The notes beneath the pieces were generated by a model. The model was not told the DNA's origin, did not search any database, and was given only the letters and a program-made list of their open reading frames with translations. Position numbers and translations under genes: made by a program. 64,000 nucleotides of DNA, taken from the NCBI GenBank assembly GCA_965222615.1, contig CBDCUI010000007.1, positions 160,001-224,000 on the forward strand. The letters run 5' to 3'. Origin of the DNA: Gammaproteobacteria bacterium. Its GTDB lineage: Bacteria; Pseudomonadota; Gammaproteobacteria; UBA4575. Of this stretch, positions 31,217 through 49,641 are shown piece after piece; the first letter of the stretch is position 1, and each line of letters begins with the position of its first letter.

Positions 31217-32446
31217 CTAATAATCGCTCATATTGGCAGAAAACTGCACCGGCACATTCACTGTAACCACGCCACCGTTAAGAATATCCGCTGTCAAGGA
31301 AACCGCATTGCCACCAATGCTTCCGCCACTAGCCGCACTACAACTGGAACCCGCAGTTGCCGAACAAGTCCATGGCGCAGACAATGTCACTCCATTTGGA
31401 AGATTATCTGCTATTGCAGCACCGGTAACATTATCAGGACCATTATTTCTCACAACAATGGTGTAAGTACCCGTTCCACCTGGTGTATAGGTCAAACTTC
31501 CATCGTCTTTAGTGATCGATAAATCTGCAGTTAAATTACTGTTTGTTACAGTACATACAACTGTCTCACTTATTCCAACAACAATTCCGGTAACAGGATT
31601 ACCAGGTGTTGATGAACCGTCGTCACAACTTGCACTTGTTAAACTCCAACCAGTAGGTACAGCCTCAGAAATTGAGTAAGTACCTGGAGCAACACTTGTA
31701 ACTATTGAATCTGATCCATTGATCGTCACCGAATTAGAACCACCAATAGAATCGGTAATAGTAAAATTAAATGCCGTTCCGTCATCAGGGGTTGCATTTT
31801 TAATTATGGTTATAAAGCCCCCTCCTACAACCGCAAGTAAATCAACAGGATTTGAATTTGGGCTAGAAGAATTAAACGAGGCCGCATTCACCTGCGCAGC
31901 TCCGGGTGGGATATCTCTAATATCTATTGTGCATTCCGCAACAGTATCATCCGGATAATCGTCTCCTGGGCCATTGGGAACCGTTGCATCAAATGGATCG
32001 GTGGCCTCTTGTGTTACTGTGCATGACGTTTGACTTCCAGCAACAGGCGTTAGTGCTGTTGGCCCACTACAGCGGTCAGGAGTTGCATTATTGCATGAAT
32101 ATAAACTGGGTCCAGAAACTAATGCCGCAGGATTGCCGCCAATACTTAAACACAAAGCAAAGTTAATATTGCCATCTCCAGGAGTATCGGTATCAAATAG
32201 AATACAAGCGTCTCCAGTATTATTGCCTGGCAAACCTGTTTCATCCCAACTAAGTTGCACATCGTAGCTAGTAGGTAAATTACTTTCATCGATACAAAGT
32301 TGCGTTAAATCAGATTGGCCATTTTCATCGTTCGCACCCCCAATATCTTTAGAACAAGTAAACGCTGCATATGAAAACGACGAGTATAATATTGTTAATG
32401 CTATTAAACCTAAAATCTGTAAAGTTTTTAATAAAATTTTATGCAT
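31217..32446 (-). CDS. Secreted adhesin accessory protein: Cys-rich N-domain, CnaB/prealbumin-like domain, C-terminally truncated DUF11 domain
   Basis: Signal peptide ending FSYA; FITIIKNA...GTYSISE...CTVTN; ADLSITKDDG...YTIVVRNNGP...IADNLP ending at VQFSANMSDY*; 11 bp downstream of the giant gene. Confidence 0.8.
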   Translation of the reverse strand: MHKILLKTLQILGLIALTILYSSFSYAAFTCSKDIGGANDENGQSDLTQLCIDESNLPTSYDVQLSWDETGLPGNNTGDACILFDTDTPGDGNINFALCLSIGGNPAALVSGPSLYSCNNATPDRCSGPTALTPVAGSQTSCTVTQEATDPFDATVPNGPGDDYPDDTVAECTIDIRDIPPGAAQVNAASFNSSSPNSNPVDLLAVVGGGFITIIKNATPDDGTAFNFTITDSIGGSNSVTINGSDSIVTSVAPGTYSISEAVPTGWSLTSASCDDGSSTPGNPVTGIVVGISETVVCTVTNSNLTADLSITKDDGSLTYTPGGTGTYTIVVRNNGPDNVTGAAIADNLPNGVTLSAPWTCSATAGSSCSAASGGSIGGNAVSLTADILNGGVVTVNVPVQFSANMSDY

Positions 32447-32457
32447 AACTAAATTAT

Positions 32458-47400: not shown

Positions 47401-49641
47401 GGTGTTGTCGACACTGCCCGCATCCACTTCCGCTTGCGTCACCACATGCGTACCCGTCAACACACAGGTCGCACTCGCCGCTAAGGTCGCACACGTATTC
47501 GAGTTCGGCGTTAACAACGCATCACTCACCACCACGTTGTTCAACGTCGTCGTGCCGTCGTTGGTCACCGTCACACTGTACGTTAAGGTGTCATTTAAGC
47601 TGACATCGCCCGAACCGTCTTCATCCGCATGGCTATCCAAGGTCTTGGCAATCGCTAAACTATGATTTTGTGCCACCGGCGTGCTCAGCGTCACCGTCGT
47701 CGGACCCGGCACTTCGGTACTGGTCACACTACCGGTGTTGTCGACACTGCCCGCATCCACTTCCGCTTGCGTCACCACATGCGTACCCGTCAACACACAG
47801 GTCGCACTCGCCGCTAAGGTCGCACACGTATTCGAGTTCGGCGTTAACAACGCATCACTCACCACCACGTTGTTCAACGTCGTCGTGCCGTCGTTGGTCA
47901 CCGTCACACTGTACGTTAAGGTGTCATTTAAGCTGACATCGCCCGAACCGTCTTCATCCGCATGGCTATCCAAGGTCTTGGCAATCGCTAAACTATGATT
48001 TTGTGCCACCGGCGTGCTCAGCGTCACCGTCGTCGGACCCGGCACTTCGGTACTGGTCACACTACCGGTGTTGTCGACACTGCCCGCATCCACTTCCGCT
48101 TGCGTCACCACATGCGTACCCGTCAACACACAGGTCGCACTCGCCGCTAAGGTCGCACACGTATTCGAGTTCGGCGTACCCGTAACAACGCATCACAGGT
48201 CGCAACAACGCATCACTCACCACCACGTTGTTCAACGTTCGTCCTGTACGTTAAGGTGTCATTTAAGCTGACATCGCCCGAACCGTCTTCATCCGCATGG
48301 CTATCCAAGGTCAACTATGGTGTCATTTAAGCTGACATCGCCCGAACCGTCTTCATCCGCATGGCTATCCAAGGTCTTGGCAATCGCTAAACTATGATTT
48401 TGTGCCACCGGCGTGCTCAGCGTCACCGTCGTCGGACCCGGCACTTCGGTACTGGTCACACTACCGGTGTTGTCGACACTGCCCGCATCCACTTCCGCTT
48501 GCGTCACCACATGCGTACCCGTCAACACACAGGTCGCACTCGCCGCTAAGGTCGCACACGTATTCGAGTTCGGCGTTAACAACGCATCACTCACCACCAC
48601 GTTGTTCAACGTCGTCGTGCCGTCGTTGGTCACCGTCACACTGTACGTTAAGGTGTCATTTAAGCTGACATCGCCCGAACCGTCTTCATCCGCATGGCTA
48701 TCCAAGGTCTTGGCAATCGCTAAAGAGGGTATAGCTGCAGTCAAATCGTCAGTTGCAGTTGCACTGTCAGCTGCTTCATCCGTGCTTACTACGCCCGTGG
48801 TATTGGTGTGCGTACCTTGTGTGGCAGAGGTCACGTCTACTGTAATCGAGCAACTGCCCGACGCCGGAATGGTGCCACCGCTTAGTGTCACATTACCGCC
48901 GCCATCCACCGCAGTTAGGATGCCGCCACAATCGGTGCTTGCATTCGCTGGTGTCGTATTGGTAATCTCAGTTGGGTAGGTATCCGTCATCGCTGCGTTA
49001 GTTAACGCAAACGCGTTCGGATTCGTGATCGTGATCGTTAATGTACTGGTACCGTTTACCGCGATGTTGTCCGGACTAAAGACTTTCGTTATTGTTGGTG
49101 CTTCATTGTCATCATTAGTGTAAGTACAAGTGACATTGTCGTTTACCGCCAAGGTTAAGTTCGGCGCCGCCTGTGTTACACCACTGACATCAGTACCACC
49201 AGCCGTGGCATTAGTACACGCTAAGGTCGTCCAGGTGTAACCCGCAATTGCAGCTTCGCTTAATACATACGTACCGACATTGACACTAGCATTGGTAACC
49301 GCCGCATCACCTTCGTTGCCACTGATCGTTTGTGGCCCGGTTGCAGTTAAGATGAAGTCAGTATCCACGGCAGTACCACCATCGTCATTGGTGACATCTT
49401 TCACTAAGGTCAAGACCGCTTTAGCGAGCGTATTACTATCCGTAGCGCTATTATTACCAGGCACAGGATCGGTTACACCGGGGGGGACTGTAACCGTTGC
49501 AGTATTGACTAAGGGATCTGGAAAACCAGCTTGAGACGAAAATGGAACCAATAAAATAATTAACGAAAAGAAATACTTACAGGTAGATGTAAGTTTGCGC
49601 ATTGGTTGCTTTGTTTGATTTCGTCCTATGAAAACCTGCAC
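32458..49641 (-). CDS. Giant repetitive surface adhesin (~5700 aa) with DUF11-like repeats, OmpA domain and probable C-terminal beta-barrel; interrupted at ~48177-48320 in this sequence
   Basis: ORFs 48301-49641 (signal peptide, first repeat) and 32458-48129 are in the same frame and share the repeat; OmpA motifs IVGHTD, NYGLSIARA, NRRVEV; C-terminus GWFFDITGKY. Confidence 0.85.
38335..48724. repeat. Intragenic tandem array of about 31 x 333 bp (111 aa) units, identical as far as can be read except one scrambled unit
   Basis: Shadow ORFs recur every 333 bp from 38357 to 48014, then a 399-bp step to 48413. Confidence 0.97.

Follow-up and report, generated by a model that had tools for sequence, protein, structure and literature searches.

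Two secreted proteins at one locus

On the minus strand of the window, which is the whole stretch of 64,000 nucleotides analyzed here, two adjacent genes encode a small secreted protein and a giant adhesin. The small protein consists of a head region, a SpaA_4 domain, and, as its last 105 residues, an incomplete DUF11 domain that we call the catcher. Its features are as follows.

31217-32446, minus strand: open reading frame of the small protein, 409 aa
32366-32446, minus strand: putative signal peptide of 27 aa, ending in SYA and followed by AF, read from the translation
31814-32365, minus strand: head region, residues 28-211, beta-rich, with 8 Cys
31538-31813, minus strand: SpaA_4 prealbumin-like domain, residues 212-303 (Pfam)
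31220-31534, minus strand: catcher, CLIPPER/DUF11 strands A-F, residues 305-409, at the exact C-terminus

The translation places signal-peptide cleavage after MHKILLKTLQILGLIALTILYSSFSYA and before AF. The head (residues 28-211) matches no family in Pfam or NCBIfam; its fold is predicted at low confidence, and the best atlas score of 0.85 serves as a lead only. The SpaA_4 domain is modeled with a pLDDT of 81-90 in the full-length small protein, and its Lys216, Glu261, and Asn302 are invariant in an alignment of 7 orthologues. Pfam DUF11 matches residues 308-400 with 43.8 bits (cutoff, 24.6 bits) over profile positions 1-96 of 114, and the stop lies 9 residues past this match, after the ending VPVQFSANMSDY. 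The first-pass annotation, made from the sequence alone, had described a DUF11 domain that stops short of its final strand, and the profile match bears this description out. The catcher has two invariant Cys residues (WTC...SSC). Its Lys313 codon lies at 31508-31510, and its Asp347 codon lies at 31406-31408, both checked on the sequence.

The adhesin begins with what we call the tag, and its features, listed from the N-terminus onward, are as follows.

49528-49602, minus strand: putative signal peptide, MRKLTSTCKYFFSLIILLVPFSSQA, with the ATG at 49602, read from the translation
49414-49527, minus strand: tag, CLIPPER strand G and a trailing segment, GFPDPLVNTATVTVPPGVTDPVPGNNSATDSNTLAKAV, the N-terminus of the mature adhesin
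48301-49413, minus strand: rest of the N-terminal fragment, with SpaA_2, DUF7933, and the first DUF7507 units (Pfam)
48130-48300, minus strand: scrambled junction of about 170 bp, with an identical frame on both sides and two in-frame stops
32458-48129, minus strand: main open reading frame, 5,223 aa, with CLIPPER_2/DUF7507 repeats, two DUF11 domains, an OmpA-like domain, and a barrel
38335-48312, minus strand: stalk, 30 tandem copies of 333 bp with 99% identity, encoding 111-aa DUF7507-type units (Tandem Repeats Finder)
35980-36288, minus strand: OmpA-like peptidoglycan-binding domain (Pfam OmpA, 1.3e-12)
32461-34203, minus strand: C-terminal beta-barrel region, start approximate (Pfam OMP_b-brl, 3 stretches)

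The adhesin N-terminus reads MRKLTSTCKYFFSLIILLVPFSSQA followed by GFPDPLVNTATVTVPPGVTDPVPGNNSATDSNT, at the coordinates first annotated, and the Asn46 codon lies at 49504-49506 (checked on the sequence); the residue numbers first given for Asn46 and Lys313 hold. A Pfam scan of the 39-aa tag piece by itself gave no match, because the piece is too short. At the other end, the adhesin carries the OmpA-like domain and a predicted outer-membrane barrel. Its sequence terminates in GWFFDITGKY, with an aromatic last residue, and no autotransporter family is among its Pfam matches. The barrel region spans about 580 aa here; its counterpart in genome G219 is a separate 507-aa protein with the same C-terminal motif.

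The description of this protein as a giant adhesin holds for its N-terminal sequence and its coordinates, but not for a single open frame. Instead, the adhesin is spread over two open reading frames in a common frame, 48301-49641 (446 aa) and 32458-48129 (5,223 aa), with the scrambled segment between them. The junction sits at the edge of the tandem array and involves a 64-bp direct duplication within 48255-48376. The public contigs do not cover 48026-48309, and so the junction may be a real feature or an assembly fault. The adhesin frame is broken in genomes G006 and G014 too.

Complementarity, conserved triad, and co-occurrence

We derived a 132-position hidden Markov model (HMM) from 51 intact DUF11 repeats, which come from 8 proteins. 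The catcher aligns to positions 1-95 of this model (E, 2e-35) and the tag to positions 98-130 (E, 1e-12), so that the two orphan pieces amount to one complete domain, as had been claimed. In the nearest intact repeats both motifs are contiguous, as in VPVVFASDMID followed directly by DPLINTATAT. Here, about 18 kb separate the catcher from the coding sequence of the last strand, which lies behind a second signal peptide. Because its DUF11 strands lie on two polypeptides, the domain is a split variant and not an ordinary CLIPPER member.

All 75 unique catcher-type C-termini stop at HMM position 92-97, and all 75 contain the Lys (position 5) and the Asp (position 39). The 17 unique tags, which span HMM positions 97/98 to 127/132, all contain the Asn and all lie directly behind an AxA-type signal-peptidase site. 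The same Lys, Asp, and Asn triad is found in each of the 51 intact repeats. As for Pfam itself, its DUF11 match ends at profile position 96 in 5 of 9 other catcher proteins and at 52-85 in the other 4.

Both pieces recur together in related genomes. DNA patterns for the tag and the catcher were run against 56 genomes of the order, with reversed patterns as controls, which gave 0 matches. The tag pattern was present in 11 genomes, in one copy each, and the catcher pattern was present in 14, in one to three copies; with HMM follow-up, both pieces were located in 14 of the 56. Three genomes of the order merit individual mention. G019 (190 contigs) has a catcher, and an HMM search for its tag found none; G044 (210 contigs) has a catcher, with the tag sought by the strict pattern only; and G046 has a collapsed locus, where both pieces lie within 420 bp and the frames are broken. 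Among 400 scored genomes sampled across the class, the same 3 carried both a tag and a catcher in terminal position, and none had only one of the two; G209 has intact repeats only, all internal. The sole genome of another order with both pieces is G219, in which the gene order is barrel, catcher, catcher, tag. G219 and G014 have in common a Calx-like stalk start, and therefore the G219 case may reflect gene transfer. The prediction that homologous loci would keep the pairing is thus borne out within the order and, under another gene order, in G219. Nevertheless, most of the co-occurrence traces back to a single inherited locus, flanked by metK and tkt, and the relatives therefore do not count as independent cases.

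While the two termini are constant, what adjoins them is not. A locus encodes a single tag together with one to three catcher proteins, whose N-terminal parts are unrelated. The domain that follows the tag varies by genome (SpaA_2, DUF7507, DUF11, or Calx-beta), as does the domain that precedes the catcher (SpaA_4, DUF7933, GEVED, DUF7927, FG-GAP, or Calx-beta). With one tag set against one to three unrelated heads, the joint would allow alternative heads per stalk, and the idea of a swappable tip put forward in the first-pass annotation fits these loci. No catcher protein whose N-terminus was read has a tag there, and therefore no polymer is expected.

Structure predictions and related systems

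AlphaFold2 models the catcher alone as a seven-strand sandwich without the last strand at a pLDDT of 94, a value that does not gauge stability, and a model of the full-length small protein contains the same catcher strands. There is, therefore, no computational sign that the catcher needs a partner. Complete folding of the truncated domain by itself had been named as evidence against a split domain; the model is confident, yet the last strand is missing from it, and this partial check does not reach to stability.

Co-folding of catcher and tag gave ipSAE values of 0.66, 0.59, and 0.64, compared with 0.02 for the best of 3 controls. Partner pLDDT values were 74 or higher, and the runs had 97% or more of their contacts in common. 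By the tool's own statement, 58 of 80 solved complexes and 2 of 110 mismatched pairs attain the mark applied here, a calibration that holds only roughly because our own alignments were used. In the predicted complex, tag residues 9-15 contact catcher residues 40-45, so that the tag strand pairs with the Asp-bearing strand, and they also contact catcher Ile9, which lies next to the Lys; the chain ends touch (catcher 104 and 107, tag 1-3). The complex anticipated in the first-pass annotation thus appears in prediction, at an ipSAE of 0.64. This result may, however, stem from model memory of intact DUF11 domains, and the halves of split domains tend to pass.

The nearest described relative is the CLIPPER/DUF11 domain 9IFR. 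According to the available text of PMC12617251, CLIPPER domains (DUF11, PF01345) have a CnaA-like Ig fold in which an Asp-catalyzed Lys-Asn isopeptide bond links the first and last strands, and the triad of 9IFR is Lys715, Asp748, and Asn806. Foldseek aligns the catcher model to 9IFR over 105 columns (TMq 0.69; rmsd, 3.1 Å); 9IFR has the best TM-score in the list but is third by E-value (1.8e-3). The two are alike in Pfam family, fold, and Lys-Asp-Asn triad, with a Lys-to-Asp spacing of 34 residues here and 33 in 9IFR, and both 9IFR-type CLIPPER domains and the present pair occur in Gram-negative fibrillar adhesins. They differ in that 9IFR, as the available text of the same paper describes it, carries the whole domain on one chain with an intramolecular bond, whereas here the break falls in the loop that leads to the last strand, and the parts lie at the C-terminus of one secreted protein and the mature N-terminus of another. 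In the main text of PMC12617251, "split" and "SpyCatcher" each occur zero times, and we found no paper in the literature on a split CLIPPER domain.

Donor-strand joints with an added bond are known elsewhere. For instance, BsaA from Clostridium perfringens donates an N-terminal strand to the sheet of its neighbor, after which Asn and Lys bond autocatalytically with the help of an acidic residue, a mechanism termed donor-strand exchange and lock (PMC11580942). BsaA is a Gram-positive homopolymer of the TasA family with a Glu catalyst, unlike the present CLIPPER pair, in which two proteins would be joined once with an Asp; Pfam gave no TasA-type match among the proteins here. In the archaeal thread of Saci_0406, the mature N-terminus acts as donor strand, with a proposed inter-subunit bond that involves Asn; it differs in being a homopolymer, in which Asn57 would be linked to the alpha-amino group at the N-terminus of the subunit two positions away, and in belonging to no Pfam family (PMC9715654, accessible part). 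The tip adhesins of chaperone-usher pili (e.g., FimH and PapG) have two domains, of which the C-terminal one has an incomplete fold (PMC9715654 and PMC11821415, accessible parts). The pair described here has in common with them an incomplete Ig fold that lacks its last strand and a partner with an N-terminal donor strand. It differs in that no polymer is expected, the lock is probably covalent, and the tip would be received by one giant stalk protein that has its own membrane anchor. Moreover, there is no chaperone or usher gene at the locus, which from an AhpC/TSA-like gene to tkt contains only the adhesin and the small protein.

Laboratory splits offer another comparison. SpyTag/SpyCatcher, isopeptag/pilin-C, and SnoopTag were made from Gram-positive CnaB-type domains. 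In each, the smaller part is a short strand that supplies one reactive residue; it docks into the larger part, where the second reactive residue and the catalytic acid reside, and a covalent bond forms spontaneously. In contrast, the present split is natural, of the CnaA-like E-set type, Gram-negative, and conserved family-wide, with several catchers per tag.

A proposed joint and its alternatives

The evidence above supports the interpretation made in the first-pass annotation. We propose that one CLIPPER (DUF11) domain is encoded as two pieces, with strands A-F in the catcher and strand G in the tag, the latter being the first 35 or so residues of the mature adhesin and bearing Asn46. We infer that both proteins would be exported by Sec into the periplasm, where their signal peptides would be cleaved. 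The free N-terminal tag could then enter the open catcher sandwich, as in donor-strand complementation, and so complete the domain, with a nick left between the two chains. This would place Asn46 beside Lys313 and Asp347, and an isopeptide bond would probably arise spontaneously. Head, stalk, and membrane anchor would thereby be linked head to tail, and load would pass along this chain via covalent bonds only. Judged by part, binding of catcher and tag is very likely, and a covalent Lys-Asn bond would be a likely consequence of it; that the small protein serves at the distal tip and is joined in the compartment proposed is, taken jointly, reasonably likely. The statement as a whole (a split CLIPPER domain, complementation in trans, a Lys-Asn lock, and exchangeable heads on the adhesin stalk) strikes us as moderately probable.

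The same pieces could complement each other without an isopeptide bond, held noncovalently as in chaperone-usher systems. Donor-strand joints can be stable in this way, as evidenced by the SDS-resistant oligomers of BsaA N35A in the accessible part of PMC11580942; some DUF11 domains lack the bond, according to the available text of PMC12617251; and chemistry is beyond the reach of the co-fold. We nevertheless consider a noncovalent joint fairly unlikely, given the invariance of the Lys and Asp in catchers, of the Asn in tags, and of the triad in intact repeats. The rest of the stalk is built from families (SpaA_2, DUF7933, DUF7507, and DUF11) that the survey in PMC12617251, in its available text, lists as isopeptide families, and so such a joint would be its weakest link. 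A different prospect is that the joint forms and that the small proteins, instead of being surface heads, bind the adhesin N-terminus in the periplasm to stop or retain the adhesin or to assist in its assembly or quality control. Both partners have Sec signal peptides and would first meet in the periplasm, and the locus has no further export genes. By analogy with type V secretion, the adhesin N-terminus would exit last if the passenger leaves via or beside the C-terminal barrel, and folded parts such as the Cys-rich head and the catcher with its two invariant Cys residues are hard to pass through a pore. Against this stand the size of the barrel and the great diversity of the heads, which include adhesin-type modules (FG-GAP, Calx-beta, GEVED, and DUF7933), number one to three per locus, and suit exposed, selectable parts better than a plug; a periplasmic role is therefore unlikely in our estimation.

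Two further explanations dispense with the joint altogether. If the catcher were complete in itself, a C-terminal module that serves, for example, in sorting or secretion, and the adhesin piece a relic or a stalk cap, then the confident model of the catcher alone, the terminal aromatic residue that resembles outer-membrane targeting signals, and the excess of catchers over tags (up to 3 to 1) would all be accommodated. The pieces, however, fit exactly with zero overlap; with the next domain swapped from genome to genome, a relic would not have kept its place at the start of the mature protein; the Asn is retained in every tag; a rearranged locus in another order still has both pieces; and the co-fold far exceeds its best control. 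The absence of any interaction is thus highly improbable. As for a chance break or an assembly artifact of one DUF11-containing gene, it might be suspected from the probable assembly fault elsewhere in the adhesin gene and from the collapsed locus in G046. Yet each piece has its own putative signal peptide, the catcher gene is downstream rather than upstream relative to the adhesin, and dozens of independent assemblies have identical catcher and tag termini. A broken gene accordingly carries next to no weight, in agreement with the annotation's own argument.

If the bond of the proposed split CLIPPER domain forms, this would be the first system of two proteins in nature to parallel SpyTag/SpyCatcher, and bacteria with an outer membrane would build covalent, modular surface fibers without sortases or chaperone-usher machinery. 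The proposal, if true, would also provide a testable rule for head exchange in giant adhesins and, for protein engineering, new orthogonal ligation pairs from a family of ready-made natural tags and catchers. It would further explain widespread "DUF11 domain-containing" proteins in which the domain is short at the C-terminus, since the catcher motif ends at least 48 of 117 retrieved proteins (224-716 aa). These include proteins from Stenotrophomonas spp. and a Burkholderiales metagenome-assembled genome, all recognized from the catcher side. The broader view, a natural, sortase-independent ligation in Gram-negative bacteria with several heads per stalk and a catcher that has spread to numerous unrelated heads across multiple gammaproteobacterial lineages, Stenotrophomonas, Kangiella, and Burkholderiales included, leans only slightly toward the probable. 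The Kangiella marina protein P0225, overlooked by the motif test, has a similar C-terminal end.

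Layout of the locus and the interrupted adhesin frame

Two genes on the minus strand of the window lie between an AhpC/TSA-like gene and a transketolase gene (tkt); the stop codon of the adhesin gene is found upstream of the small-protein gene, 11 bases apart. The features are as follows:

50062-50622, AhpC/TSA-like gene
48301-49641 and 32458-48129, minus strand, open reading frames of the giant adhesin
49414-49527, minus strand, the tag, at the mature N-terminus of the adhesin
38335-48312, minus strand, tandem array in the adhesin: 30 x 333 bp, 99% identity, head-to-tail, 111-aa DUF7507-type units
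31217-32446, minus strand, the 409-aa small protein, ending in the catcher
29016-31055, transketolase

In the small protein, a signal peptide and a Cys-rich head precede a SpaA_4 domain, and a DUF11 domain comes last. The adhesin signal peptide, which reads MRKLTSTCKYFFSLIILLVPFSSQA, is followed by a 38-residue N-terminal piece and then by SpaA_2 and DUF7933; further on, two DUF11 domains and a peptidoglycan-binding OmpA-like domain precede the C-terminal outer-membrane barrel region, whose last residues are ...GWFFDITGKY. Promoter and terminator scans of the locus gave counts near the shuffled expectation. The head matched nothing in a family search, its fold is predicted with low confidence in the full-length small-protein model (mean pLDDT 69.9), and a fold atlas search with it returned a score of 0.85, which is a lead only. 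In the SpaA_4 domain (window 31538-31813), Lys216, Glu261, and Asn302 are kept in 7/7 orthologues, a pattern that would fit an intramolecular isopeptide bond of its own.

The 99% identity among the 333-bp units suggests recent expansion or ongoing homogenisation, and such near-identical units make the adhesin gene hard to assemble. At the edge of the array, a scrambled stretch (48130-48300) breaks the adhesin frame, which is identical on both sides of it; the stretch includes two in-frame stops and a direct duplication of 64 bp. Public contigs leave 48026-48309, a region spanning the break, without coverage. The break may be real, as a disruption or a switch, or it may come from faulty assembly. 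The split DUF11 domain described in the first-pass annotation is confirmed below, with one correction: the giant adhesin is not a single open frame in this assembly.

Fit of the two pieces as one domain

On the Pfam DUF11 profile (114 positions), the last domain of the small protein aligns to positions 1-96, and the protein stops 9 residues on. The tag alone is too short a piece and had no match against Pfam. A search of a representative protein library with the catcher returned multi-repeat DUF11 giants as all of its best 150 matches, and these supplied the intact repeats for a motif comparison and for an HMM (51 repeats from 8 multi-repeat proteins, 132 positions). The catcher covers HMM positions 1-95 and the mature N-terminus of the adhesin positions 98-130 of 132 (E 1e-12), leaving no gap and sharing no position, so the earlier proposal that two orphan parts add up to one complete domain is borne out. 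In the intact repeats closest to the catcher, the motifs of both pieces are contiguous: ...VPVQFASSL is followed directly by TLNPLVNTATA..., and ...VPVVFASDMID by DPLINTATAT.... Because the pieces are contiguous there and complementary on the HMM, the cut falls in the loop before the last strand. Its edges are a protein C-terminus on one side and an N-terminus made by signal peptidase on the other.

DUF11 (PF01345) was recently renamed CLIPPER, and the paper describing its solved structure, 9IFR, reports an intramolecular Lys715-Asn806 bond with Asp748 as the catalyst (PMC12617251). The AlphaFold2 model of the catcher is a seven-strand sandwich (pLDDT 94) whose best solved match by TM-score is 9IFR (0.69, rmsd 3.1 A), and the full-length small-protein model has the same catcher strands and no extra strand. 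In the PDB, the catcher sequence had only weak matches, to the archaeal pilins 8TIB and 6NAV (E 0.007-0.03), and an intact repeat had no useful one.

When catcher and tag alignments were co-folded, ipSAE reached 0.66, 0.59, and 0.64 (best of three controls, 0.02), with a partner pLDDT of at least 74 and contact agreement of at least 97%; the mark used was reached by 58/80 solved complexes and 2/110 mismatched pairs, a calibration that is only rough with custom alignments. In the predicted complex, which the first-pass annotation had proposed as a check, tag residues 9-15 lie on the Asp-carrying strand and next to the strand with Lys, and the ends of the two chains are in contact, as would be expected of a nicked domain. 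Halves of a split domain can pass this test from the model's memory of intact domains, and the result therefore means that the model treats the pieces as a single domain and is not proof of binding.

Conservation and distribution

The triad residues in the window are Lys313, Asp347, and Asn46. All 75 unique catcher ends terminate between HMM positions 92 and 97, and the Lys and Asp equivalent to those of 9IFR are kept in 75/75; the equivalent Asn is present in 17/17 unique tags, each right behind an AxA-type cleavage site. Lys313 and Asn46 are the residues originally named as the reactive pair, and the chemistry proposed for them matches that of 9IFR. These counts are not independent, because the relatives have one locus in common. 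In 13 genomes a catcher Met at -5 accompanies a tag Asp-Pro, and G014 and G219 combine a catcher Pro at -5 with a tag Asp-Thr. The two sides of the joint may co-vary; this is only a hint, since one or two evolutionary events could account for it.

A protein search of 41 relatives found the catcher end in 8 and the tag in 7, all in the metK ... tkt neighbourhood. The whole order, 56 genomes in one family, was scanned with back-translated DNA patterns, the catcher-end pattern including the stop codon. The tag pattern occurred once each in 11 genomes and the catcher-end pattern one to three times in 14, with 0 matches for reversed-pattern controls. After HMM follow-up of discordant genomes, both pieces were found in 14 of the 56, and they also occur together in G219, from another order, which answers the earlier call for a co-occurrence check. 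In two genomes with fragmented assemblies only the catcher was found, the tag being sought with the HMM in G019 and with the strict pattern in G044. A further locus (G046:C125, about 1380-1925) is a collapsed remnant: a tag with its signal peptide, a piece of DUF7507, and a C-terminal half-catcher lie within ~420 bp but in three different frames. A fusion of tag and catcher was rejected on account of the broken frames; either much of the locus was deleted or the MAG contig is chimeric.

A scan for VPVQF-x5-DY-stop in one genome per species (185,579 species) returned 13 stretches: 10 real catchers adjoining tkt, with three tandem catcher genes at 2 of these loci, and 3 chance matches (L026, L028, and L031). 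One contig, titled as a Mycobacterium MAG (L029), has a catcher end in a tkt-gap-pgk-pyk-fba neighbourhood like that of the gammaproteobacterial loci and is probably mis-binned. Of the 400 scored genomes in a class-wide sample, three (G000, G007, and G219) have full-length terminal catchers, and it is these three that have terminal tags; G209 has internal intact repeats only, within an 11,777-aa frame.

G219, the sole genome in its family and order, encodes a separate 507-aa barrel protein, then two catcher proteins, then a tag-bearing protein. The barrel gene (G219:C29, 5472-6992) ends ...GGWFVSLAGKY, resembling the barrel end of the window's adhesin, and its separate position hints that the barrel can act as a separate component. 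The stalk starts of G219 and G014 are similar, and gene transfer may therefore link the two. Within the G014 adhesin gene, two giant Calx-beta-repeat frames of opposite strand and near-identical start (L022, G014:C1, about 12969-13041, and L019) meet head to head; either the region is duplicated in inverted orientation, or it is a palindromic misassembly.

The catcher motif stands at the C-terminus of at least 48 of the 117 proteins (224-716 aa) retrieved from the protein database, among them proteins of Stenotrophomonas and of a Burkholderiales MAG; the motif test missed a protein of Kangiella that has a catcher-like end. Tag searches returned mostly internal repeats, with true N-terminal tags in 2/77 (P0341 and P0342) and 2/66 screened (P0410 and P0411). 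Three other proteins flagged by regex (P0272, P0357, and P0407) were read as mis-called starts inside repeats. In P0410 and P0411 (3671 aa), the signal peptide is followed at once by YRNPLVNTATV...NNTASDSNAL; Big_9 and cadherin-like repeats lie behind the tag, and no barrel was found in either, so here the tag sits on another type of stalk.

Across loci, the terminal modules, catcher and tag, are the only parts that do not vary. The domain after the tag is SpaA_2, DUF7507, DUF11, or Calx-beta depending on the genome, and the parts before the catcher are SpaA_4, DUF7933, GEVED, DUF7927, FG-GAP, or Calx-beta. There is a single tag per genome, with as many as three catcher proteins; G043 and G050, for example, combine their one tag with three catcher subtypes. 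A second catcher-ended protein in G041 (455 aa; C1:1468545-1471880) lies ~200 kb from that genome's adhesin locus, and catcher proteins therefore need not be encoded beside the stalk.

A proposed joint and its relatives among known systems

Every computational test available supports the split-domain interpretation. The best reading is donor-strand complementation in trans with a probable isopeptide lock, by which heads would be joined to the stalk at its free N-terminus. Both partners would enter the periplasm by Sec, the tag strand would be donated in trans to the catcher to complete the domain, and the lock would probably form after complementation. Because the catcher is C-terminal and the tag N-terminal, the product would be one continuous head-stalk-anchor chain, and because the first strand holds Lys and the donated one Asn, a pulling force would pass through the bond. 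The survey of isopeptide domains lists the domain families of the adhesin stalk as members (PMC12617251), and a non-covalent joint would thus be the stalk's weakest point. A live alternative is that the small proteins serve as periplasmic stoppers instead of surface heads; the difficulty of bringing a folded, Cys-rich head to the cell surface speaks for it. A polymerising pilin was rejected: none of the N-termini of catcher proteins inspected starts with the tag, and so a polymer is not expected.

By sequence and fold the pair is a member of CLIPPER/DUF11, but it is spread over two chains where that domain is a single one. SpyTag/SpyCatcher and isopeptag are engineered systems, and by analogy the window's pair would work alike. 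Chaperone-usher pili share with it an incomplete fold and an N-terminal donor strand; in contrast to them, the locus is without a chaperone or usher gene, and no polymerisation is expected. BsaA, with its "donor-strand exchange and lock" (PMC11580942), and the archaeal thread (PMC9715654) are natural homopolymers that work alike. No description of a split DUF11/CLIPPER domain was found in searches of the open full-text literature, and two DUF11 papers among the matches deal with other subjects. The pair is a new split form of a known isopeptide domain and of the donor-strand principle.

Elsewhere in the window, at 54522-62070, a methyl-accepting chemotaxis protein adjoins a hybrid CheA-type kinase of 2039 aa that has CheW and receiver domains and three Hpt stretches. 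This chemosensory gene pair, which we take to be ChpA-like, is unrelated to the split domain.
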